A stretch of DNA of 64,000 bases, taken from assembly GCA_021820465.1 (NCBI GenBank), contig JAKADP010000002.1:39301-103300 (forward strand). The letters run 5' to 3'. Source of the DNA: Bacillota bacterium. Its GTDB lineage: Bacteria > Bacillota > Sulfobacillia > Sulfobacillales > JAIMBI01. The notes under the pieces are model-generated. The model was not told the origin of the DNA. It did not search any database and saw only the letters and a list, made by a program, of their open reading frames with translations. Both the position numbers and the translations under genes were made by a program. Below, piece after piece: positions 10,872 through 46,905 of this stretch (positions are counted from its first letter, which is position 1; each line of letters begins with the position of its first letter).

Positions 10872-12827
10872 ATGGCCCCAAAGAGCAAACCAGCGCTGCA
10901 TCCGCGCAAGGGGGCACACCCGCATCCCCCATCGCCGCCCGGGCTCCAGGCGGCGCTCGCGCTGCGCCGTGAGCCGTGGCCGTGGCGCAAGGCGATCGGC
11001 GCCCCCATCGCCACCGCGATGGCGATGGCGCTGGGGTTGGCGCTGGGCCACTTTTCCTGGGGCACATGGGCGTTTATGGGGGCATTCACATCGATGTATG
11101 TGGATCCCATGCCGTATGGCCCGCGCGCCCGCCGGCTGCTGGCCGTGGGACTGGGCCTCGCGGCGGCCATGGCCGTCGGGTCGCTGGCGGCCGTGAGCTG
11201 GTGGACGATGGCGGTGGGCCTCGCGGTGGTGGCCGGGATGGGGACGTTTCTCACCGGAGCCTACGACGTCCCCTTGCCGGCCGGGTTTATGTTTGTGCTG
11301 GTGGCGTGCATTGCCGCCGCGCTGCCCGTCCATCCCGCGCTGACCCCCCTTCGGGTCGGATGGGCCCTCGCCGGGGCAGCCCTGGCTTGGCTCGTGGGCA
11401 TGGCGGGCTGGGGCTGGCACCCCCGGCGGCCCGAGCAGCAGGCGGTGGCCCACGCATTGGGGGCGCTGGCCCGCTATGCCGTGCATGCGGGGGGGCCCGG
11501 GGGATTTCGCGCGGAAGCTCAGGCGGCGCAGGCCGTGGCGGCGGCGGAGGCGGCTGTGGCTCCGCTGGCGCGCCTGAGGTTCCGGGGGCCGGACGCCACG
11601 CGCCTCGTGCTCTTGGCTCACGAGACCCGCCGGCTGTTTGATGCGCTGGCGCTGGAAGCCCCGCCGGCCCCCGCACGGGCTCAGGTGGGCCGCATCCGGC
11701 GCGCCGCCGACGCGGTGACCGGCGAGGTGTCGCCCCAGCGGGCGCCTGAGGCTGGGGGAGGACGTGTCGGGCGGGCTTTGGCCCGCCTCGAGCGGATACT
11801 GGTGTTTCGCGGCAGCTGGCCTGGCCTCGTCCCGGCCGCGAGCGGTGGGCCACCGACCCCCGGGGAGCGCCTGCGCGCGGCGTGGGGACGCACGTCGCTG
11901 GTCCGGGTGGACGCACTTCGCATGGCCTTGGCCGTCGCGGGGGGCACGGCGCTGGCGGGGGGGCTGGGCGAGGCTCATCCGTATTGGGTGCCGCTCACCA
12001 TCGCCGCTGTCCTGCAGGGGCAGAGCGTTCTAGGGATGCTGGAGCGAGGCATTCAGCGGGTGGCGGGGACAACAGTGGGGCTGGCGCTGGCGGGCGGGCT
12101 TCTGGTGTGGCACCCGGCGCCGTGGGCTACCGTGGCCGTCATGCTGGTGCTGCAGTTCCTGCTTCTGCTGTTCATCCGCGCCAACTATGGCGTGTCCGTG
12201 GTGTTCATCACGGCGCTGGCGCTGATCATCATCGTGACGGAGGTGCATGGGCCGGTTGGGCCTCTGCTGTGGGCCCGGTGGGTGGACACCCTGGGTGGGG
12301 TGCTGCTGGCCAGCCTGGCTCTGTGGCGCCTGTGGCCGCGCGACGCCTCCCGCCGGCTGCCGGCGGCCTTGGCCGAGGTGGTGGAGCAGGCGGGGCGCCT
12401 CTGGCGGCAGCGCCTGGCGGGGCCGGGGCCCGACCCCGCCACCGCGGCGCGGCTTGGGGCCGCCGTCGCGACCCTCGGGACGCTCAGTGCCGACGCCGCA
12501 GCGGAGTGGCAGCGCTCCCCCCGACTCGAGCGCCTCTGGCCGGCGATTGTCGGGGCCCGCCGCCTGGCCTGGGTGGTGCGGGCGGGGGCGTGCCGCCCTG
12601 CAGACACTCGCGCGGAGCAGGACGCCTGGACCCATGCCTTTGACCGCCTCGCCGCGGCCGCCCGGACGGGGTCTCTGCCAGAGTCTGGGCCCCTCAGGCG
12701 GCCAGCGACCGCGCCGGCGGTGCACGCCAGCCTGCTGACGCTGGATCGGGCCCTTGCGCGGGCGGCCAGCGCCGCGGAGGGAGGACGCGGCCCCGCGGCG
12801 CCCGCCGGCCAGCCGACGCCATCTTGA
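10872..12827 (+). CDS. FUSC/ArAE-family efflux membrane protein
   Basis: Two TM blocks; HPYWVPLT, RGIQRVAGT, RWVDTLGG; GGAGGGAG RBS. Confidence 0.85.
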   Translation: MAPKSKPALHPRKGAHPHPPSPPGLQAALALRREPWPWRKAIGAPIATAMAMALGLALGHFSWGTWAFMGAFTSMYVDPMPYGPRARRLLAVGLGLAAAMAVGSLAAVSWWTMAVGLAVVAGMGTFLTGAYDVPLPAGFMFVLVACIAAALPVHPALTPLRVGWALAGAALAWLVGMAGWGWHPRRPEQQAVAHALGALARYAVHAGGPGGFRAEAQAAQAVAAAEAAVAPLARLRFRGPDATRLVLLAHETRRLFDALALEAPPAPARAQVGRIRRAADAVTGEVSPQRAPEAGGGRVGRALARLERILVFRGSWPGLVPAASGGPPTPGERLRAAWGRTSLVRVDALRMALAVAGGTALAGGLGEAHPYWVPLTIAAVLQGQSVLGMLERGIQRVAGTTVGLALAGGLLVWHPAPWATVAVMLVLQFLLLLFIRANYGVSVVFITALALIIIVTEVHGPVGPLLWARWVDTLGGVLLASLALWRLWPRDASRRLPAALAEVVEQAGRLWRQRLAGPGPDPATAARLGAAVATLGTLSADAAAEWQRSPRLERLWPAIVGARRLAWVVRAGACRPADTRAEQDAWTHAFDRLAAAARTGSLPESGPLRRPATAPAVHASLLTLDRALARAASAAEGGRGPAAPAGQPTPS

Positions 12828-12852
12828 CTTTGCGCATCCGCCCCGCTAGCAT
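12824..12852 (+). promoter_or_regulatory. sigma-A promoter of pheST leader
   Basis: TTGACT-17 nt-TAGCAT; the -35 contains the FUSC stop codon. Confidence 0.7.
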
Positions 12853-12867
12853 CAGCAAAAATTGAAC

Positions 12868-13110
12868 TCGATGACCAAGACAAGTAGCTCTCACCCGACG
12901 CCCAGGAAGCGCTTCCGAAGGGATCTCCCGGGATTGGAAGAAGCGTGCGGCGGGCCAGCGAAATTCCCTTGCGAGAGGCGCCCTGAACACCGTGGCTCGG
13001 CACGGAGTAGGGGTGACGGGGGCGCCCGATAGCGCGCGGAGAGCCGGCTTTGGCCGGAAATCAGGTGGTACCGCGAGCAAATCGCCCTGTGGGGGCGATT
13101 TTTTGTTTTG
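12868..13110 (+). ncRNA. T-box riboswitch (Phe)
   Basis: GATGA...AGTA, specifier GAAA-TTC (12964-12966), T-box AGGTGGTACCGCG, terminator ATCGCCC...GGGCGAT-T-tract. Confidence 0.92.
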
Positions 13111-13132
13111 CGGCGTGAAGGGAGGGTGCCCG

Positions 13133-14176
13133 ATGGCGCGCAGGATGGGCAGCGAGGAGTGGGCCACCGCGGCGCTGGCCGAAATCGCGGCGGCCAAGAC
13201 GGTGGCGGACGTCGAGGCGCTCCGGGTCCAGTACCTGGGGCGGCAGGGCCGCGTGACGCGCGAGCTGCGGGCGATGGCGGGTCTGCCGCCCGACGAGCGG
13301 CGAGCGCGGGGCGCGGTGCTGAACGCCTGCAAGGCCGATATCGAGCAGGCGCTGGCCCAGCAGCGGGAAGTGCTGACACGGGCGGAGCAGGCCCAGCGCC
13401 TGGAGGCGGAGCGGCTGGATATGACGCTGCCAGGGGTGCCGCCGGCGTGGGGCACGATGCACCCCATCACCCGGGTGCGGCGGCGTCTGGCCGACGTCAT
13501 GGTGCGGCTGGGCTTCACGATCCGCACCGGGCCTGAGCTGGAAACCGAGTGGTACAACTTTGAGGCCCTGAACATGCCGGCGGAGCACCCGGCCCGGGAG
13601 ATGCACGACACATTTTATCTGGAGGCGCCGTACGTGCTGCGCACGCACACCTCGCCCTTTCAGATTCGTGCCATGCGGGAGGCCGGCGGAGAGCTGCCCC
13701 TGCGGGTGGCCACGCTGGGCTTCACCTACCGCCGCGACGATGATGCCACGCACACGCCGCAGTTCATGCAGATGGAAGGGCTGGTGGTGGATCGTGGCAT
13801 TGGGCTGCCCGACTTGAAGGGCGTGGTGTTGGCGGTCGTGCGGGACGTGTTTGGCCCGACGGAGCGCGTCCGGCTTCGCCCCAGCTTCTTTCCGTTCACC
13901 GAGCCCTCGGCGGAGGTGGACATGAGCTGTCCGCTGTGCCTGGGCGCCGGGTGCCGCGTGTGCCACACGGGCTGGATCGAGGTGTTGGGATCTGGCCTGG
14001 TGCATCCCCGGGTGTTGGAGGCGGGGGGGTATGACCCCCGCGAGGTGTCGGGCTTTGCCTTCGGGTGGGGCGTGGAGCGTGTGGCCATGCTCCTGTACGG
14101 CCTTGACGAGCTGCGTCCGCTCTATCAAAACGATGTGCGCTTCCTGCAGGCGTTTGACGCGTGGGGCGCCTGGTGA
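13133..14176 (+). CDS. pheS: phenylalanyl-tRNA synthetase alpha subunit
   Basis: HPAREMHDTFY, LRTHTSP, FPFTEPS, GFAFGWGVER. Confidence 0.97.
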   Translation: MARRMGSEEWATAALAEIAAAKTVADVEALRVQYLGRQGRVTRELRAMAGLPPDERRARGAVLNACKADIEQALAQQREVLTRAEQAQRLEAERLDMTLPGVPPAWGTMHPITRVRRRLADVMVRLGFTIRTGPELETEWYNFEALNMPAEHPAREMHDTFYLEAPYVLRTHTSPFQIRAMREAGGELPLRVATLGFTYRRDDDATHTPQFMQMEGLVVDRGIGLPDLKGVVLAVVRDVFGPTERVRLRPSFFPFTEPSAEVDMSCPLCLGAGCRVCHTGWIEVLGSGLVHPRVLEAGGYDPREVSGFAFGWGVERVAMLLYGLDELRPLYQNDVRFLQAFDAWGAW

Positions 14177-38916: not shown

Positions 38917-39963
38917 ATGGCCAACGCCGAGGCGGTCCTGCGGGTATTCCTGACCAGCTATCGGGACATTGTGGAGGCGGACCCGCTGGAGAAGAAGCTC
39001 GCGGCCATTGCCGCGGTCCTGGTGCGAGCGGGCCTGTTCCAGCGCGCGGCCGTGCAGGTGTATGCGTCGCTCTACGGCGAGAAGCTGTTTGGCCTGGCGG
39101 GACTGACGCCGCAAGAAGAGGAGTGGATTCGCACCCACGACATCCTGCCGGAGGAGGAGTATGCCCGGGTGCAGCAGCATGGGGTGCGCATCGAAGAGGT
39201 GTACTTTGTGCCGCACGAGCACCTGCGATCGGTGCTGCCCAACGTGGACGACGTGCTCCTCATGGATGCCTCGCGTGACCCGGACGACTGGCAGGAGGGG
39301 CAGTGGCACCCCGACGATATGCTGTACATGCCGCTGCTGGCGTCCAACGGACTGGCGCTGGGCAATATCACGGCTGACGCCCCCTTCGACAACCGCGTGC
39401 CTGACGAGGAGACCGCCGCCCTGCTGGCTCCGTTCGTGGCCATGGCCGCGTGCACCATCGAGCAGGAACTCAACCGGCGGCGCGACTACCTGACCCAGTG
39501 CTTCAATGGACAGTTTTTTCGCGATGAGGTGAGCCGCCGCCTCAGCATGCGGGGCCGGCCGCTGGGACTGGCTTTTGTGGACATGAACGGGTTGAAGGCC
39601 GTCAACGATGACCTAGGGCATGAGGCGGGCGACCGCGCCATCCAAGCCACGGCTGACGCCCTGCGTGCGCTGGGGGCGAAGCTGGCCGGCCACCTGTTCT
39701 ACGATCCCGTGGTATGCCGGCTTTACGGCGACGAATTTGGCCTGCTGTTCCGCCCGGACGCGGCCGTGGCCCCCGATGAGGTGGCCGCCGCCATGCTGGC
39801 CCACTGGCCCGAAGACGTCCCCCCGGCCGCGGTTGGCGTGGCGGGGGCTGAGCCCGAGGACGACCCGCGCACGCTCGTGCGGCGCGCCGAGGAGCGCATG
39901 TACGCGGCCAAGCGGGCCATGCGCCCACCCGGCGCCGGCCGGGAGCGTCGCGCCTCGGAGTAG
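38917..39963 (+). CDS. GAF-like sensor + GGDEF domain protein (YGDEF variant)
   Basis: FVDMNGLKAVND..GH.AGD, RLYGDEF, AEERMYAAK; N-terminal WHPDDMLYMPL region. Confidence 0.85.
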   Translation: MANAEAVLRVFLTSYRDIVEADPLEKKLAAIAAVLVRAGLFQRAAVQVYASLYGEKLFGLAGLTPQEEEWIRTHDILPEEEYARVQQHGVRIEEVYFVPHEHLRSVLPNVDDVLLMDASRDPDDWQEGQWHPDDMLYMPLLASNGLALGNITADAPFDNRVPDEETAALLAPFVAMAACTIEQELNRRRDYLTQCFNGQFFRDEVSRRLSMRGRPLGLAFVDMNGLKAVNDDLGHEAGDRAIQATADALRALGAKLAGHLFYDPVVCRLYGDEFGLLFRPDAAVAPDEVAAAMLAHWPEDVPPAAVGVAGAEPEDDPRTLVRRAEERMYAAKRAMRPPGAGRERRASE

Positions 39964-40049: not shown

Positions 40050-40973
40050 ATGTCTTTGTTCAGCGGCGGGGTGTCGAACGGCAGCAACTTTGTCGGAGGC
40101 CCGCTCGAAATTTACCTAGAGGACGTCACGGTGCAGGTGGGCGGCTTGGGGCGGCCTGCCCTGGATCGGGTGTCACTGCGGCAGGGCGCGGGGTGCCTGA
40201 CGGTGCTGGGGCCGCGGGGGTGTGGCAAGTCCACCTTGCTGAGCGTGGTGGCGTCCCGTCTGGCTCCATCCACAGGGACAGCGCGCGTCGGTCGGGCGGA
40301 CGTGGCCCAAGATCCGCTGGCGGTGCGCCGGCTCGTGGGGTACGTGCCCGAGGCGGTGACGGTGCCGGAGGATCTCACGCTGTCGGAGTATTTGCTGGAG
40401 CTGGCACGGCTGGACGGGCTCGGCCGAGAATCCCGCGATCGGGTCGAGGCGGCGCTGGCCGCTGTGCACCTGGCGGCGTCCGCCCACCGCCGCTTGAAGG
40501 CGTTTTCCGGCGGCATGAAGCGGCGCGCACTGGTGGCTCAGGCCCTCATGAAGGATCCGGCTTGTCTGGTGGTGGAGACACCGACCGCCGGGCTTGATCC
40601 CTATGAGCAGCTTATGACGCTGGAACTGCTGCGCTCGCTGGGCGAGGATCGGCCGGTGCTGCTGTCCACCACGGTGGTGGACGACGTTCAGGACTTGGGC
40701 GGGCATGTGGCGGTGCTGGACCGTGGCCGGCTCATCCGGCGCCTGCCGGCGCGGGAGTTGGCGCTGATGGCGCGGGGACTGGTGTGGGAGCTGCCGTGGA
40801 GCTTCCGCGCTCGCGTGCATGAGGGTCTGGTGTTTCCCGGGCCCCGGCCCGACACGGTGGCGGTGCTGGCGCAGAGCTCCCCCCACCAAGTGGCCCGCCC
40901 CGTGGACCCCACACCCGAATATGGCTATCTGGTGCTGCTGTGGAACAGCCGACGGGAGTCTCAGAGCGCGTGA
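40050..40973 (+). CDS. ABC ATP-binding protein 1 (degenerate Walker B and H-loop)
   Basis: GPRGCGKST, FSGGMKRR, LVVETPTAGLDP, LLSTT. Confidence 0.88.
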   Translation: MSLFSGGVSNGSNFVGGPLEIYLEDVTVQVGGLGRPALDRVSLRQGAGCLTVLGPRGCGKSTLLSVVASRLAPSTGTARVGRADVAQDPLAVRRLVGYVPEAVTVPEDLTLSEYLLELARLDGLGRESRDRVEAALAAVHLAASAHRRLKAFSGGMKRRALVAQALMKDPACLVVETPTAGLDPYEQLMTLELLRSLGEDRPVLLSTTVVDDVQDLGGHVAVLDRGRLIRRLPARELALMARGLVWELPWSFRARVHEGLVFPGPRPDTVAVLAQSSPHQVARPVDPTPEYGYLVLLWNSRRESQSA

Positions 40974-41890
40974 GTGACGTGGCAATGAAAGTGCGCGGCT
41001 TGGTGCAGTACGGCCACGGGGTGGAAGCCCCAGAGATTTTGCACGAGGTCACCCTCGATCTGCGCACCGGGCTCACGGCGCTGGTGGGCCCGAACGGCGC
41101 TGGCAAGACGACGCTGCTCCGGTCGTTGGCCGGGATCGTCCCTTTGGAAGAAGGCCATATCGAGGTGGGCGACGTGGCGATGCAGGACCGCCCCGCCGCC
41201 GTGCGTCGCCGCGTGGGCTACCTGCCCCAGTTTCCCGGAGTCTACCGCCGGCTCACCGTCTGGGAGCATGTTTGGCGGCAGCAGGCCTGGATGCTGGGCC
41301 ATCCGCCGGAGGAGGAGGACGTGCGGACCGCACTCCGGCACTTTGGCCTCCTGCACCGCGCCGACGGCAGTGCGGCGAGGCTGTCGGCGTCGGAGCGCCG
41401 CTGGCTGGCCTTGGCCATGCTGTGGGCCCGCCGCGTGCAGGTCATGCTGCTGGATGAACCCACCGCCGGGCTGGACCTAGAGGAGCGCCTCGCGCTGTGG
41501 GACGTGCTGGCGGCCCTGCTGCACGAGCCGGATGGCCCCCGCGCCATCTTGGTCACCACGCATCTGCTGGACGAGGTGGCCCGATTTTGCAGCGATGCGA
41601 TGATGCTGGTGCAGGGCCGGATGGTGTATCAGGGCGCTGTGGCCGGCCTGGCCGGGCGCGCTCAGGGCCGCACCTGGTATGTACCGCGGGGCGTGCCGGT
41701 CCCGGACGCGGTGGAGGTGGGCGTCGACCTGGCGCAAGACCGGCGGCTGGTCGTGTCGGTGGGCGAGAGGGCCGAAGGGCCGCCGGGGTTCACGCCCCGC
41801 CCGCCCCGCCTGCTGGATGGGTATTTGGTGGTGGAGCGCCAGTGGCTGGAAGGGAGGTGGGCCGATGGCCGGCGGGCTCCCCGCCGCTAG
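40970..41890 (+). CDS. ABC ATP-binding protein 2 (degenerate signature)
   Basis: GPNGAGKTT, GYLPQ, LSASERR, LLDEPTAGLD, VTTH. Confidence 0.9.
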   Translation: MSDVAMKVRGLVQYGHGVEAPEILHEVTLDLRTGLTALVGPNGAGKTTLLRSLAGIVPLEEGHIEVGDVAMQDRPAAVRRRVGYLPQFPGVYRRLTVWEHVWRQQAWMLGHPPEEEDVRTALRHFGLLHRADGSAARLSASERRWLALAMLWARRVQVMLLDEPTAGLDLEERLALWDVLAALLHEPDGPRAILVTTHLLDEVARFCSDAMMLVQGRMVYQGAVAGLAGRAQGRTWYVPRGVPVPDAVEVGVDLAQDRRLVVSVGERAEGPPGFTPRPPRLLDGYLVVERQWLEGRWADGRRAPRR

Positions 41891-44027
41891 GGCGCCTGCC
41901 GCGGGCCCCTCGCGGGCCACGGCGATCTGGGTGCTGGCGGGCGACACGTGGCGCCAGAGCTGGCGGGAAGTGGTGGTGCGCACCGAACTGGTGGCCCTGT
42001 TGCTCCTGTCCCTGATTGCCGGCGTGGCGGCGGTGGGGTCCCCGACTGCGGGGGCCGGTGCCATCCAGATGCTGGCGCTGTGCCTCATGCTGGTGCCGTT
42101 TGCGGTGGTGTTGGCGGCGGGCCAGGTGTGGCGCAGTCCGGCTGCCGAAGTGGCGGTGTTCGCCCGACCCGTCACGGCCGCGGGCTATGTGCTGGGCCGA
42201 GCCCTCGGGCTGGTGGCGGTGGGGGCGGCCATGCTGGCGGCGGTTGACGCGCTGGGCACGCTGGCCCTGTTTGGCATTGCCCGGCTGCCGCTGGTGTCGT
42301 CGCTCGCGTGGAACACCGCTTGGTGCCTCCTCGCGGTGGCCCCGAGCCTGGTGCTGACGGCTGCCGCGGCCGTGTGGCTGGTCGGGCGGACCGGGGGTGG
42401 GGCGCGCTACTTCACGCTGGGCATCCTGGGGAGCCTCGTCGTGGCGTTTGTCGAGTACAAGTGGACGGCGTTGGCGGCGGCGCTGGACCCGCACCTCGTG
42501 CTGTGGAGCCCATTTCCGGGGATGCTGACGCTGGGGCTTGCGCTGCCCCCCGAGCTGTTGGGCCCGACGCCCGGCTGGCTGTGGGCCAACCGCGCCGTCT
42601 GGCTGGTGGTGGCCGCGGTCCTGCTGTTGGCGGCGGTGCGGGAGCGAGACCGGGGCCGCACCACGCCGTCGGCGAGCCCCGCGCGCGACCAAGCGCTGAT
42701 CCGCGGCGCCGTGGGGGCGCTGGTGGTGGCGATGGTGTGGCTGGAGTCCGCGGCGCTGTCGCTGTCGCCGGGGGTGCTGCCGGCCGCAGCGGCGGCGGGC
42801 AGCCTGGGCGTGGCGGCGGCGGGGCCCTTGGCCCTGTCGCTGGCAGTCAATCCGGCCAGTGGAGTGGTGGCCGGGCGGGCCAGCGTGCACGTGGTGACAG
42901 GGCACGCCTCCTCACAGCCGCTCGGGTTTTGGCTGAATCGGGGCCTCGGAGTCCAGCAGGCCACGTGGAACGGCCAGCCCGTGCCCATCATCCATGCGGG
43001 CGGACGGGTGCTGGCGGGCAGTGCTGCCCGACTGGTGGCGGTCCGTGTGCCCGGAGGATCCGGGACGCTGGTGGTGACCTACGGCGGCCGGCTGCTGCCG
43101 CTGGCCACGTGGTTGCCGACGCCGCCGTTTGCCCCGGGCAGCGGGGCCGGTGCGGCGTACGCGGGCGGCGGGCGGGTGTACTGGTCCGGGGCCGGAGCCT
43201 GGTACCCGCGACTGCTCGCGGCCAGCGGGGCGGGCAGGCCGATCTTCGTGCCCACGTCGCTGTCTTGGCACTTCACAGGACCCCGTTCCGCCTTCCCGGC
43301 CTGGAGCGGCCTGCCCGGCCCAGGCGCCACCGGGGTGCTGCCGTCCGTCCTATGGCTTCAAGGCCCATATCGCGCGACGGAAGTGGACGGCGTGAGCGTA
43401 TACACGCGCCGTGCGGTGGGCGCGGTGCAGCAGGCGTCGCTCTCGGCGTATGCGGCGGCCTTAAAGGTGCTGAGCCCCTGGCTGCCGGGGGCCGCCGCCC
43501 GCGTGCCGGTGATGGTCGTGGACCCCTTGCTCACGCACGCCGCCATGACGCCGGCGTTTGTGGCGCTGCCGGGCAACCAGCCGTACTGCGTCCCCGCCGA
43601 CCCCGTGGTGGGGACGTGCACGGCGCCGGAGCCGACGGGGGCCGCACCGTGGCTGCGCCTGGCGGCGTTGGGGTGGGAAAACGCGCTGGGCATTGTGCCC
43701 GGGGGAACGCGCGCCACGACGCCGGAATGGCCCGCCGGCGACCAGCGCCAGCAGCTGCTGGGGGTGCTGGCCGCCGCTACCGTGATTCGGGCCGATGCCG
43801 GCGGCCCCGTGGCCCGGGCCGTTGCGCTGGCCGGGTATCAGCGGCGGGGTCGGCTCCCCATCGTGGGGCGCCTGTCGGCCGTGCGGGCCGGTGAGTTGAA
43901 GCAGCTGGCCGCTTGGGCGGCTACGGCGAGTGCGAGCCAGTGGGAGGGCATGGTGGCCCACGTGGCCGGTGCGGCGGCTCGTGGGCCCGTGACCTGGGCC
44001 GATGTCTTGGCCGGTGAGTCGTTCTAA
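41865..44027 (+). CDS. ABC-2-type permease fused to a large extracellular M1-aminopeptidase-like domain
   Basis: Multi-TM N-terminal part (FARPV...YVLGR), then beta-rich LALSLAVNP...FWLNRGLGV...LVVTYGG...AWYP region; GGAGG RBS. Confidence 0.65.
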   Translation: MAGGLPAARAPAAGPSRATAIWVLAGDTWRQSWREVVVRTELVALLLLSLIAGVAAVGSPTAGAGAIQMLALCLMLVPFAVVLAAGQVWRSPAAEVAVFARPVTAAGYVLGRALGLVAVGAAMLAAVDALGTLALFGIARLPLVSSLAWNTAWCLLAVAPSLVLTAAAAVWLVGRTGGGARYFTLGILGSLVVAFVEYKWTALAAALDPHLVLWSPFPGMLTLGLALPPELLGPTPGWLWANRAVWLVVAAVLLLAAVRERDRGRTTPSASPARDQALIRGAVGALVVAMVWLESAALSLSPGVLPAAAAAGSLGVAAAGPLALSLAVNPASGVVAGRASVHVVTGHASSQPLGFWLNRGLGVQQATWNGQPVPIIHAGGRVLAGSAARLVAVRVPGGSGTLVVTYGGRLLPLATWLPTPPFAPGSGAGAAYAGGGRVYWSGAGAWYPRLLAASGAGRPIFVPTSLSWHFTGPRSAFPAWSGLPGPGATGVLPSVLWLQGPYRATEVDGVSVYTRRAVGAVQQASLSAYAAALKVLSPWLPGAAARVPVMVVDPLLTHAAMTPAFVALPGNQPYCVPADPVVGTCTAPEPTGAAPWLRLAALGWENALGIVPGGTRATTPEWPAGDQRQQLLGVLAAATVIRADAGGPVARAVALAGYQRRGRLPIVGRLSAVRAGELKQLAAWAATASASQWEGMVAHVAGAAARGPVTWADVLAGESF

Positions 44028-44042
44028 TCGCGAGGGGGGGCA

Positions 44043-44762
44043 ATGATGGCACAGAGCGGCGGCCGGCGGCTCGGCGTCGGGTGGCCGCGGGCTGTGAGGG
44101 TCCAGCGCCTAGTGCTGGAGCTCAAGCTCGCGGGGGGCGCTCCCTGGATTTTGGTGCCGCTGGGCCTGTTGGTGCTGACACTTATGCACACCGGCCTCGG
44201 GGGCGGCGCGGCCGAGTGGGCGCCTCACTGGGCCGAAAACTGTGAGGCGTTCCTCCCGCTCGGCTTTGGCATTGGCTCCGCCTCGCTGCTGCTGGTGGAG
44301 CACGATGAAGGCATGCTGGAGATGGCGTCGGCCCTGCCGCTGCCGAGGCTGGCGCGGACACGGACGCTGGCGCTTGTGGGAGGCGCCTGGCTCCTGGTGC
44401 TGGTATGGCTTGTCGGGCTGCGGGTCCTGTTTGGCCCGGTGCCGTTTTGGACCGGCGTGGGGGCGGCCCTGGGCCCTGGCCTGTTCCTTGGGGGGGGATC
44501 GGCGCTGGTGGCCAGCCGGTCTGGGCGCGTCGCGCTGGGCTACCTGGTGGCCATCGGCGTGCCGGTGATGGACTTGGTGCTGCAGCTGCTGGGGGTGTTT
44601 TACCGGCTTTGGCCGCTGCAGTTGGTGAACGTGTTTGCGTACCGGTGGGCCACGCCAGAGCCGGGGTGGGTGGTGGTCAAGGTGGTGATGGGCCTGGTGG
44701 GCTTGTGGCTGTATCGACGTGCCATCCGGGGATGGCGGGATGCGGGCGCGAACCTGCTGTAG
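44043..44762 (+). CDS. second ABC permease-like membrane protein
   Basis: About 6 hydrophobic segments, E..EGMLE motif typical of ABC-2 permeases; follows the ABC genes. Confidence 0.65.
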   Translation: MMAQSGGRRLGVGWPRAVRVQRLVLELKLAGGAPWILVPLGLLVLTLMHTGLGGGAAEWAPHWAENCEAFLPLGFGIGSASLLLVEHDEGMLEMASALPLPRLARTRTLALVGGAWLLVLVWLVGLRVLFGPVPFWTGVGAALGPGLFLGGGSALVASRSGRVALGYLVAIGVPVMDLVLQLLGVFYRLWPLQLVNVFAYRWATPEPGWVVVKVVMGLVGLWLYRRAIRGWRDAGANLL

Positions 44763-44803: not shown

Positions 44804-45949
44804 GTGCAGCGAGGGCCGTGGGGCGGATCCGAGGCCGAGGCAGCCGGCGGCCGCGATGTTGGCCGGCTGGACACGCCAGCGGTGGTGGTGGATCGCGGAA
44901 TCGCGGCGGCCAATCTCGAGCGCATGGCCGCCCGGGTCAGTGCGCGGCGCCAGGCGCTGTGGCCCCATGTCAAAACCCACAAGAGCCTAGCCTGGGCCCA
45001 GCGGCAGCTGGACTTGGGGGCCGGGGGTCTCATGGTGGCGAAGTTGGAGGAGGCGGTGCCGCTCGCCCGGCATGGGGTGCCTGCCGTGTATGTCGGCTAC
45101 CCACTGGTGGGCCCCGGACCGGCCCGTCGGCTCACCCAGCTGGTGGCCGCCGGCCTCCAGGTGCGCGTGGCCGTGGATTCGCTGGCGGGGGTAGCCTGCC
45201 TCGCGGACGTGGCGCGCGCTACCAGTGCTCCGCTGGCCGCGCTGGTGGAGGTGGACACCGGGTTTCAGCGGTGCGGCGTTGCGAGCGTCGACGACGCGGT
45301 CCAGCTTGCGGAGGCGCTCGCGGCCGCCGGGGTGCGGTACCAGGGGATCACCTGCTTTGGGGGGCACATTACTTGGCGCCTCTCCGACGACGAGCGGCGG
45401 GCGGCGGTGGTGGCGCAAAACCTGCTGCTGGCCCAGTGGTCCGAGGACCTCAGGGCGCGTGGGTGGGCCCCGGAGGTGGTGTCGGTGGGGGGGACCGTGC
45501 CGACCGGGCACCTGGATCTGCTGTCGTCCGCGACTGAGCTTCGGCCTGGGACCTATATCTACAACGACGTGGCCACCGTCTTGGCCGGCGCCGCCCAGTG
45601 GGCCGACTGTGCCGCGTGGGTGTGGACCACGGTGGTCAGCACCCCGACCGCTGACCGGGCCGTGGTGGACGCCGGCAGCAAGACCCTCTCGAGCGATGGC
45701 CCTGTGGCGGGCTCGTTTGGGCACGTGCGCGAACGGCCAGATGTGTTTGTCTCGTCGCTCTCAGAGGAGCACGGGGTGATTCGGGCGCGGGACGGCGGGG
45801 CCACGGGCCTCGAGGTGGGCGACCGCCTCTCCATCGTGCCCAATCACGTGTGCACGATGATTAACCTGCACGACAACGTGCACTTGGTGGAGGGGCGGCG
45901 GGTCGTAGGGTCGCTCGCGGTCGACCTGCGGGGCATGATTCACTCATGA
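44804..45949 (+). CDS. fold-type III PLP enzyme, D-threonine aldolase/D-serine dehydratase (DSD1) family
   Basis: PHVKTHK, ELRPGTYIYND, DAGSKTLS, SEEHG, PNHVC; start uncertain. Confidence 0.88.
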   Translation: MQRGPWGGSEAEAAGGRDVGRLDTPAVVVDRGIAAANLERMAARVSARRQALWPHVKTHKSLAWAQRQLDLGAGGLMVAKLEEAVPLARHGVPAVYVGYPLVGPGPARRLTQLVAAGLQVRVAVDSLAGVACLADVARATSAPLAALVEVDTGFQRCGVASVDDAVQLAEALAAAGVRYQGITCFGGHITWRLSDDERRAAVVAQNLLLAQWSEDLRARGWAPEVVSVGGTVPTGHLDLLSSATELRPGTYIYNDVATVLAGAAQWADCAAWVWTTVVSTPTADRAVVDAGSKTLSSDGPVAGSFGHVRERPDVFVSSLSEEHGVIRARDGGATGLEVGDRLSIVPNHVCTMINLHDNVHLVEGRRVVGSLAVDLRGMIHS

Positions 45950-45988: not shown

Positions 45989-46630
45989 CTACAGGGTGAG
46001 ATGCTCGAAGGCGGTGCGGAGCTGCTCGTTTAACACGCGGATGTGGGTGCCCTTCATGCCAAGCGATCGCGTCTGGATGACCCCCGCGCTCTCCAGCTTG
46101 CGGAGCGCGTTGACGATGACCGACCGGGTAATGCCCATCTCATCCGCCACGTGAGACGTCACGACCAACCCTTGATTGTCGTCGATTTCGGAAAACAGCC
46201 GCTGTGCGGCCATCAGCTCCGAGTAGGATAGAGCCTCGATCGCCGCCGATACCTGGGTCCGCTCGCGATCGCGGTTGGCGGAGCGCACCTCCCGCGCCCG
46301 GCCCATCACCAGGGCGATGATGGTGGAGCCGTATTCCGCCAGCAGCCAATCGTCGGGGGTGAGGCCCGACTCGGGCCGATGCAGGGTCAGGATGCCGGCG
46401 GGGCCGGATGGCCCCTGCAGGACCATCTTGGTGTTGGGCGTCGCGGTGCGTCCGGCGGCCGTTCCCGAGCCCCCGGCGCTGAGGGGCGTTTCGCCCAGCG
46501 GGGCCGTCACCTCCACGGCGCACCCCAGCGCTCGAGCCAACTCCTCCATGAAGGGCCGCAGGTCGTAGCTGTCGGGCACCCCGCGCCACAGTGCATCGGT
46601 CAGTTGCCGGAAGTCATCAAGCACAGCCAT
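45989..46630 (-). CDS. codY: CodY-family regulator with shortened GAF domain (213 aa)
   Basis: LSYSEL, GITRSVIVNALRKLESAGVI..RSLGMKGT, DD.LLAEYG.T; GGAGGAGG RBS before ATG at 46630. Confidence 0.88.
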   Translation of the reverse strand: MAVLDDFRQLTDALWRGVPDSYDLRPFMEELARALGCAVEVTAPLGETPLSAGGSGTAAGRTATPNTKMVLQGPSGPAGILTLHRPESGLTPDDWLLAEYGSTIIALVMGRAREVRSANRDRERTQVSAAIEALSYSELMAAQRLFSEIDDNQGLVVTSHVADEMGITRSVIVNALRKLESAGVIQTRSLGMKGTHIRVLNEQLRTAFEHLTL

Positions 46631-46905
46631 CTGTCGTCCTCCTCCAATTTGTCGCGGCGCGCTCGGGTCTGCTGCCGCCCGATGCCCGCTTGCCAGGGCT
46701 CGCCGACGGGATGCCACGGCGGCCACCGGCTCACTTCGGGCTTGCCTCCACACTGATTCGCAATATCACGGCATTTTGAGGTATTGCTCCCGATCCACTG
46801 TGCCTGAGCACTTACCGGTCGTAGTCACGGCACGTGGTCCTACCAGATCACATGTTACCATGAAGTAGTGGACCGGCAAGCCGCCGGCGGGAAATTGGCG
46901 AGTAT

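Follow-up and report, generated by a model that had tools for sequence, protein, structure and literature searches.

A four-gene cassette was analysed in a 64,000-nt stretch of DNA from a Bacillota bacterium (contig JAKADP010000002.1; the whole stretch is called the window below). All coordinates refer to the whole window, in which the cassette occupied positions 40050-44762 of the + strand. The first two genes encoded ATP-binding cassette (ABC) ATPases, each with one nucleotide-binding domain (NBD1 and NBD2), followed by a permease of 720 aa and a second permease of 239 aa; the four genes all lay on the + strand and either overlapped or were separated by 15 nt or less. An acyl-CoA ligase, an SDR and a protein with a YGDEF motif preceded the cassette on the same strand, a fold-type III pyridoxal phosphate (PLP) enzyme followed it, and the surrounding DNA had about 70% G+C. 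An earlier reading made from the sequence only (the sequence-only reading) had described two NBDs and two dissimilar permeases in four tightly linked genes, flanked co-directionally by the YGDEF protein and a D-amino-acid PLP enzyme; its coordinates and gene count were correct, and the gene calls and Pfam matches agreed with the flanking arrangement. A promoter and terminator scan of the region returned no promoter-like sites and only uninformative terminator-like ones, and a look through the listed sequencing runs turned up no RNA data set. The features are collected in Table 1.

Table 1. Features of the cassette and of its immediate surroundings, in window coordinates.
Feature	Position	Strand	Basis or detail
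YGDEF protein, 348 aa, neighbour outside the conserved cassette	38917..39963	+	PF00990, E 9.6e-18
YGDEF protein, N-terminal ~160 aa	38917-39400	+	no Pfam family
NBD1, ABC ATPase, degenerate catalytic side, 307 aa	40050..40973	+	PF00005, E 4.9e-19
NBD1 Walker A, GPRGCGKST	40209-40235	+	
NBD1 signature, FSGGM (canonical)	40503-40517	+	
NBD1 Walker B, LVVETP	40566-40583	+	Asp to Glu; catalytic Glu to Thr
NBD1 H-loop, STTVV	40665-40679	+	His to Thr
NBD1 C-terminal extension	40700-40973	+	
NBD2, ABC ATPase, 316 aa from GTG	40940 (GTG) or 40985 (ATG) to 41890	+	PF00005, E 4.3e-26
NBD2 Walker A, GPNGAGKTT	41087-41113	+	
NBD2 signature, LSASE instead of LSGGQ	41381-41395	+	
NBD2 Walker B, MLLDEP	41444-41461	+	
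NBD2 H-loop, TTHLL	41555-41569	+	
NBD2 C-terminal extension	41600-41890	+	
Large permease, 720 aa	41865-44027	+	GGGAGG ahead of ATG
Predicted N-terminal amphipathic helix and six-helix ABC-2 (type V) membrane domain, residues 1-270	41865..42674	+	AF2 model, fold search
Most conserved large-permease motif, TM5-TM6 loop, probably outward	42507..42560	+	helix order
Predicted seventh membrane helix, residues 272-300, returning the chain to the outside	42678..42764	+	AF2 model, hydropathy
Predicted extracytoplasmic pseudo-M1 domain (beta domain and thermolysin-like domain), residues 301-720	42765..44024	+	AF2, Foldseek, VIA, hhalign
Remnant of the GxMEN exopeptidase motif, HAAMT, residues 558-562	43536..43550	+	hhalign puts the motif Glu on M561
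Cys-bracketed loop CVPADPVVGTC, residues 575-585, just ahead of the dead helix	43587..43619	+	alignment
Putative dead zinc-binding helix, LRLAA in place of HExxH, residues 597-601, followed by W604	43653..43667	+	hhalign mapping, column census
M1 first zinc His, now L597			hhalign
M1 catalytic Glu, now R598			hhalign
M1 second zinc His, now A601			hhalign
M1 conserved Trp after the motif, W604			hhalign
M1 third zinc ligand Glu, now G633	43755-43769 region	+	hhalign
M1 GxMEN Glu, now M561			hhalign
M1 catalytic Tyr region, now a gap			hhalign
Small partner permease, 239 aa, six hydrophobic segments	44043..44762	+	hydropathy
Fold-type III PLP enzyme (DSD1 / D-threo-3-hydroxyaspartate type), neighbour outside the conserved cassette	44804 (GTG)..45949	+	PF14031, E 1.6e-25; PF01168, E 1.6e-24
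CodY-like regulator	45989-46753	-	HTH_CodY, E 1.4e-25; weak GAF-like match, E 9.1e-5

The family was rare. It formed 12 clusters in 5.8 billion proteins, and 45 representatives were recovered from 1.84 billion proteins at E <=1e-3, 25 of them at <=1e-30. Twelve loci were located in 185,579 species genomes, which were Bacillota-type metagenome-assembled genomes except for one labelled Spirochaetales; four short metagenome loci brought the total to 16. When 401 genomes of the phylum were sampled, the family occurred in a single one, the window's own. The cassette itself was retained wherever it could be followed: NBD2 was present with NBD1 before it in all 13 loci having upstream sequence, the small permease followed the large one in 12 of 12 loci having downstream sequence, and identity fell to as low as 33%.

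An AlphaFold 2 (AF2) model of large-permease residues 1-330, made from a 44-row alignment, had a predicted local distance difference test score (pLDDT) of 87.7 and a predicted template-modelling score (pTM) of 0.86. In a fold search of 48,161 PDB representatives that did not rely on Foldseek, the membrane domain matched NosY best (7o0y_D; Z 19.4, root-mean-square deviation (rmsd) 3.5, 239 aligned), followed by PmtCD and a mycobacterial efflux pump (both 14.6), ABCG2 and ABCG1 (both 14.3) and ABCA4 (12.6), with CcmB-type proteins, KpsM and Wzm (Z 10.4) further down. Foldseek recovered NosY weakly (E 4.1e-3), with a TM-score of 0.68-0.71 on the NosY side. On this modelled fold the membrane domain is predicted to be a type V (ABC-2) permease. 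Sequence families did not reveal it: neither permease matched any family in Pfam (E up to 10) or NCBIfam (E up to 1), the Pfam ABC2_membrane models did not match the large permease of the window at E up to 10, PF12730 was touched by just two of the 45 family members (best E 3e-4), and permease-family profiles found no match among PDB sequences at E up to 10. The most conserved motif of the large permease, SPFPGMLTLGLALPPELL, which also served as the pattern for the locus search, sat between model helices 209-214 and 237-263; P216, P218 and L221-A226 were invariant in a 12-member alignment. Because the N-terminus is predicted to be inside and a seventh helix follows the six-helix domain, the 420 C-terminal residues would lie outside. 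An Arg-rich stretch (RERDRGR...PAR) in the TM6-TM7 link, ahead of the seventh helix, and an invariant Cys pair farther along the chain would both fit an outside ectodomain.

When the ectodomain was modelled separately (residues 300-720, 45-row alignment), the AF2 model had a pLDDT of 92.3 and a pTM of 0.92. All of the top 50 Foldseek rows against the PDB were M1 peptidases, the best being 6a8z_B, the two-domain M1 of Deinococcus radiodurans (E 1.7e-11, probability 1.00, TM-score 0.47). VIA-align placed 337 residues on residues 1-397 of tricorn factor F3 (1z1w; Z 17.0, rmsd 6.8) and gave Z 15-16 for ERAP1 (46-484), IRAP and LTA4H (11-431), with residues 5-421 of the ectodomain model spanning ERAP1 46-484; EryP (7v9p_B), a lanthipeptide-processing M1, matched at Z 14.4. 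The first 11 rows of an independent wide fold search were likewise M1 (Z 17.0 to 10.8), followed by M61 peptidases and TAF2 (Z 9.0), and thermolysin was matched at Z 5.9 by the second half of the ectodomain only. The Pfam M1 models (PF01433/PF17900) did not match the permease of the window, and PF17900 was seen in one of 45 family members (E 0.016). By contrast with these single-family models, when the ectodomain-family profile was aligned by hhalign to an M1-enzyme profile built from the window's own genome and sampled Bacillota genomes, the probability was 98.5% (E 1.6e-14, 334 columns). Model and profiles thus supported the view that the ectodomain represents M1 domains I and II together and is probably homologous to them rather than merely alike in fold. 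The sequence-only reading had likened the extracellular region to the N-terminal beta domain of M1 aminopeptidases; structure prediction and fold search upheld the M1 likeness, and its limitation to the beta domain fell, since the match covers domains I and II.

The window's genome also encoded two canonical M1 aminopeptidases, each about 850-860 aa long (L014, G000:C132, and L015, G000:C66), both with HExxH-X18-E and GxMEN intact, so the dead ectodomain is not the cell's only M1 fold. M1 matches were obtained in 31 of 101 sampled genomes; no permease-M1 fusion was found among the 30 M1 open reading frames (ORFs) extracted from that sample, none of which had more than two hydrophobic segments.

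The HExxH motif was absent from the large permease, from all 45 aligned family members and from all 54 collected relatives. Ectodomain residues were mapped onto M1 enzymes by hhalign columns, and a census of the corresponding columns was taken over a 44-row ectodomain alignment. The first-His column held L in 21 rows, G in 8, E in 5, Q in 4 and other residues in the rest; the catalytic-Glu column held R14, E7, T7 and others; and the GxMEN-Glu column held L17, V7, M6, W6 and others, with no Glu. The Trp column after the motif was W in 42 of 44 rows. In the 12-member alignment no His, Glu or Asp of the ectodomain was invariant, C575 and C585 being the sole invariant residues there; in the wider alignment the pair occurred in 18 of 44 rows. 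The two cysteines may form a disulphide. Judged from its residues, the ectodomain was supported as a catalytically dead M1 homologue. A catalytic zinc site elsewhere in the domain was considered and rejected, and any alternative catalytic metal site appears unlikely, because no ligands are conserved and the Cys pair is limited to 18 of the 44 rows. These results agreed with three earlier claims: that no HExxH occurs anywhere in the large permease, which now extends to its relatives; that LAALGWENALG is the equivalent helix, hhalign setting HExxH on L597, R598, L, A and A601; and that the ectodomain is dead, with no alternative zinc site in the alignments.

The ratio of nonsynonymous to synonymous substitution rates (dN/dS) was 0.14-0.23 for the two ectodomain halves against 0.13-0.15 for the membrane domain (Nei-Gojobori; the window with L002, the window with L004, and L005 with L008), values that come from a rough method, G+C-rich codon usage and three unsaturated pairs, more distant pairs being saturated. 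To judge from these ratios, the ectodomain is under purifying selection despite the lost zinc site.

NBD1 and NBD2 of the window and of 11 further loci were compared motif by motif (12 cassettes). Both ATPases of the window scored well above the PF00005 cut-off of 25 (69.7 bits for NBD1 and 92.6 bits for NBD2), with Q-loops VPE in NBD1 and LPQ in NBD2. NBD1 had a canonical Walker A and signature (FSGGM). Its H-loop His was lost in 11 of the 12 sequences, being T or Q, and its catalytic Glu in seven, the window clade having ETP, where the Walker B Asp has become Glu as well, and a middle clade DG or DA; the five most distant sequences kept DE. In NBD2 the Walker A and the Q-loop, as well as Walker B (DEP) and the H-loop (TTH), were intact in every cassette, and the signature was degenerate in 12 of 12 (LSASE, LHFGQ, LSPAR, LGAAE and others). 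The defects of NBD1 and NBD2 share one composite site in a head-to-tail dimer, which leaves one consensus ATP site; assuming that NBD1 pairs with NBD2, this site would consist of the catalytic side of NBD2 and the signature of NBD1. A maximum-likelihood tree split NBD1 from NBD2 with 100/100 support and with mirrored subclades, indicating that the pair is older than the spread of the family and has been co-inherited. The complex had been proposed to be asymmetric; that proposal was supported, and the complementary decay of the ATP sites adds to the asymmetry. The C-terminus of both NBDs was also extended by about 80 aa, with a common P-T/D-x-E/L-D-G-Y-L motif at its end; this extension was present in NBD1 and NBD2 of all cassettes and may be a regulatory or dimerising domain.

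The small permease had several invariant polar residues (H49, E65, N66, E93, R107, R162, D177 and R201). Its Atlas model (pLDDT 0.67) resembled ABC2_membrane_4 and ABC-2 clusters at TM-scores of 0.56-0.67, which we take as a lead only. When its profile was aligned by hhalign with that of the large permease, the probability was 3%, which is not significant and agrees with the dissimilarity of the two permeases noted by the sequence-only reading.

The genes around the cassette were far less stable than the cassette. GGDEF, PLP-enzyme and CodY neighbours recurred only in L002-L004, whose identity was 68-82%, so that the GGDEF and PLP genes accompanied three of the 13 loci whose upstream side was covered and three of the 12 whose downstream side was covered. 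L002-L004 share the ligase and the SDR with the window too, and this neighbourhood is therefore plain synteny. The conserved link to GGDEF and DSD1 genes that the sequence-only reading had suggested did not survive the comparison, and functional coupling to them was rejected, the neighbours not being conserved. More distant loci had unrelated neighbours, including an SDR, ArgR, DUF4012, a formate dehydrogenase-like protein, glycerate kinase, MaoC, an HD domain and an MFS protein. At L006, a BacA/UppP gene lay directly upstream of NBD1 on the cassette strand, together with an OmpR-type response regulator (1894-2970, +, and 1209-1898, -); at L009, a PAP2 phosphatase gene lay directly downstream of the small permease, also on the cassette strand (10935-11549, +). 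The two phosphatases belong to unrelated families and stand on opposite sides of the cassette at two distant loci (2 of 16), which makes them a lead only. A tblastn search with both found no copy beside other cassettes or in the window.

Several features of the neighbours were recorded in their own right. The YGDEF motif stood at residue 270 of its protein in place of GG(D/E)EF, and the protein may be a non-catalytic GGDEF protein. The PLP enzyme had Ala_racemase_N and D-ser_dehydrat domains and AAGGAGG ahead of its GTG start at 44804. Its best NCBIfam match, the 3-hydroxy-D-aspartate aldolase BhcC (E 8.5e-51), scored 173 bits, far under the cut-off of 690 bits. The PLP homologue at L003 (10942-11855, +) was matched by two overlapping segments (query 30-103 and 108-391) that lie in different frames, for which a frameshift or a fault in the assembly may be responsible. 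Some 1.2 kb beyond the downstream end of the L011 cassette there was an IS200/IS605 pair, consisting of a Y1 transposase and a TnpB with a Cas12f1-like TNB domain (11800-13020, -, and 13086-13418, +).

The conserved gene set, the folds, the absence of all catalytic residues, the purifying selection and the ATP-site asymmetry that were observed are best explained, in our tentative view and at somewhat under an even chance, by an asymmetric type V ABC exporter or extractor that passes an envelope compound, peptide-like or lipid-linked, to a dead-peptidase ectodomain on the outside. The four products would form one heterotetramer with a probable stoichiometry of 1:1:1:1, NBD1 and NBD2 pairing inside and the large and small permeases pairing in the membrane. 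Each complex would carry a single pseudo-M1 domain, tethered outside by the seventh helix of the large permease. One ATP site would be live, built from the Walker A, Walker B and H-loop of NBD2 and the FSGGM signature of NBD1, and the second, with the Walker B and H-loop defects of NBD1 and the degenerate signature of NBD2, would bind ATP without turning it over. Hydrolysis at the live site would drive a membrane-embedded or cytoplasmic substrate through the permease pair, presumably outward; the fold matches of the membrane domain that ranked after NosY included the exporters PmtCD, ABCG and ABCA. Above the exit, the dead peptidase fold would serve as a non-catalytic module that receives or holds a putative ligand. 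A peptide-like or lipid-linked envelope compound seems the most likely substrate; the transported species is a guess, because no substrate, partner or regulator gene was conserved beside the cassette when the neighbourhoods of the loci were compared.

That negative result also counts against an exporter, as do three other points. The nearest solved membrane domain is that of NosY, and for NosDFY a role as a mechanical coupler, not as a transporter, has been proposed. The former catalytic positions of the ectodomain are variable across the family, and they gave no sign of a conserved ligand pocket there; the peptide-binding receptor put forward by the sequence-only reading is thus a putative role. 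Finally, the one pointer to an ABC-2 fold in the small permease is the Atlas lead, and its profile is unlike that of the large permease.

The main competitor, though unlikely, is a mechanotransducer. Nothing would then cross the membrane; ATP cycling at the live site would move the permease pair, and this movement would open and close or reposition the dead M1 domain outside as a clamp. The clamp would grip, release or activate a partner outside the cell, for example a wall hydrolase, a surface protein or an enzyme undergoing maturation. Mechanical coupling is the mechanism proposed for NosDFY and FtsEX-type systems, and NosY stood 5 Z units over the next fold relative of the membrane domain, although a fold likeness to NosY is silent on function. 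The covalent tie of the ectodomain to the permease through a dedicated seventh helix would suit a mechanical linkage, and so would the position of the most conserved permease motif, since the outward TM5-TM6 loop could contact the ectodomain. However, no extracellular partner gene was conserved in the neighbourhood. The ectodomain is also a two-domain M1 without domain IV, the domain whose movement switches M1 enzymes between open and closed states.

A module for sensing or resisting peptide antibiotics, of the BcrAB/BceAB kind, seems improbable. In such a module the dead peptidase would bind a wall-active peptide (bacitracin-like, with undecaprenyl pyrophosphate or lipid II as its target), while the ABC engine would release the lipid carrier or pump the drug out. 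BcrAB pairs with BcrC (PAP2) or BcrD (UppP), and genes of these two families, both of the undecaprenyl-pyrophosphate-phosphatase type, adjoin the cassette at L009 and L006, respectively. M1 folds bind peptides, and EryP was among the fold matches. However, the phosphatases were present at only two of 16 loci, with none added by tblastn, no histidine kinase or regulator was conserved, and the peptide-holding GxMEN and zinc positions of M1 enzymes were gone and variable in the family.

Equally doubtful is a clamp driven by a single ATP stroke, through which nothing would be transported and in which nucleotide cycling would open and close the dead M1 cleft so that it grips and releases a peptide stem or a wall precursor bound to a lipid carrier. 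If this were true, the cassette would be a mechanotransducer like NosDFY and FtsEX but of a new structural class, in a Gram-positive-type cell, and the unrelated undecaprenyl-pyrophosphate phosphatases beside the cassette in two lineages would be accounted for.

A peptide or envelope sensor coupled to the YGDEF protein and the D-amino-acid PLP enzyme is very improbable. In the window and in L002-L004 the genes run in one direction and lie close together, but the arrangement was kept only at identities of at least 68%, where acyl-CoA ligase, SDR and CodY genes are shared too, as in general synteny. It was absent from 10 of 13 loci with upstream and 9 of 12 with downstream sequence, and the motif of the putative partner is YGDEF, not GG(D/E)EF. 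Least credible of all is an ectodomain that still cleaves peptides through a different metal or catalytic site: the two invariant Cys and a nearly invariant Asp in the loop C-x-P-x-D-P-V-x-G-x-C would speak for it, but the 12-member alignment lacked any invariant His, Glu or Asp in the domain, the pair was found in just 18 of 44 wider rows, the M1 catalytic positions are now L, R, A, G and M with a gap in the Tyr region, and a Cys pair on the outside is more simply a disulphide.

Among ABC-2 permeases fused to M1 folds, the cassette is the smallest and cleanest version seen so far: it has four genes, a single ectodomain and a predicted single live ATP site, and it lacks both a tail domain and pump partners, which makes it a good entry point for structural and biochemical work. 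The family suggests that a peptidase fold can persist for long under purifying selection after its metal site is lost, and that a type V (ABC-2) system also evolved the degenerate-site design known from type IV heterodimers. If the ectodomain binds peptides or lipid-linked wall intermediates, it would be a new kind of substrate-handling module in bacterial ABC machines.

Among known systems, NosDFY(L) (PDB 7o0y, 7o0z and 7znq) is similar in having an ABC-2 permease that works with a large outside module, and NosY was the best membrane match. It differs in that NosY is a homodimer served by a single kind of ATPase, NosF, and that a protein of its own, the beta-helix NosD, forms the outside module. 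The window cassette had no nos genes, and the sequence identity to NosY was 13%. The decay of the ATPases recalls TM287/288, TmrAB, TAP1/2 and CFTR, which are heterodimeric ABC transporters with one degenerate ATP site. In these, as in the cassette, the catalytic Glu and the H-loop His are missing from one NBD and the signature is lost in its partner. However, they are type IV exporters built from half-transporters in which transmembrane domain and NBD are fused, whereas the window cassette is predicted to be type V (ABC-2) and is spread over four separate genes.

The ectodomain shares its two-domain layout, without domains III and IV, with the D. radiodurans M1 (6a8z) and with single-anchor Bacillota M1 enzymes of 450-520 aa. 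Enzymes of the 6a8z type and those of Bacillota keep HExxH-X18-E (30 of 30 listed ORFs); the window domain has none and is fused to a permease. TAF2 is a non-catalytic M1 homologue. As a subunit of TFIID (5fur_I, 6hqa_A) it has the same M1 domain I and II fold as the window ectodomain, but it is a eukaryotic nuclear scaffold with no membrane context. The weakest profile matches of the large-permease family included P0042 (1114 aa, E 4.5e-7) and P0044 (1167 aa, E 1.4e-6), which had a PF25275 Golvesin_C tail and no HExxH; compared with these two, which carry an extra end domain of the sugar-binding type, the window protein is compact and has no tail. Atlas neighbours of the large permease included PF01433 clusters with or without ABC2_membrane families, again a lead only.

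The closest catalogued relative is TCDB family 3.A.1.145. According to the family description in PMC3924187, it was founded on a Myxococcus xanthus protein of 1200 aa with 13 putative transmembrane segments, an ABC-2 domain and a C-terminal Peptidase M1 domain, whose function is given there as unknown. Compared by folds and by that description, the window permease has the same plan, an ABC-2 membrane domain followed on one chain by a C-terminal hydrophilic domain of M1 type. The sequence-only reading had presented the cassette as a candidate new system, which was not borne out, since ABC-2/M1 fusions already have an entry as 3.A.1.145 in that source. Literature searches returned no functional study of ABC-2/M1 fusion permeases. 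The differences lie in the details: the Myxococcus member, as described, has a zinc peptidase domain that Pfam recognises, whereas neither Pfam nor NCBIfam detects the domain of the window protein, which is 720 aa long with 6+1 helices and has lost every catalytic residue. Beyond the fusion of 3.A.1.145, the window cassette adds another permease on a chain of its own and genes for two unlike ATPases, and it appears to be a rare and compact Bacillota version of a catalogued but unstudied type of transporter.

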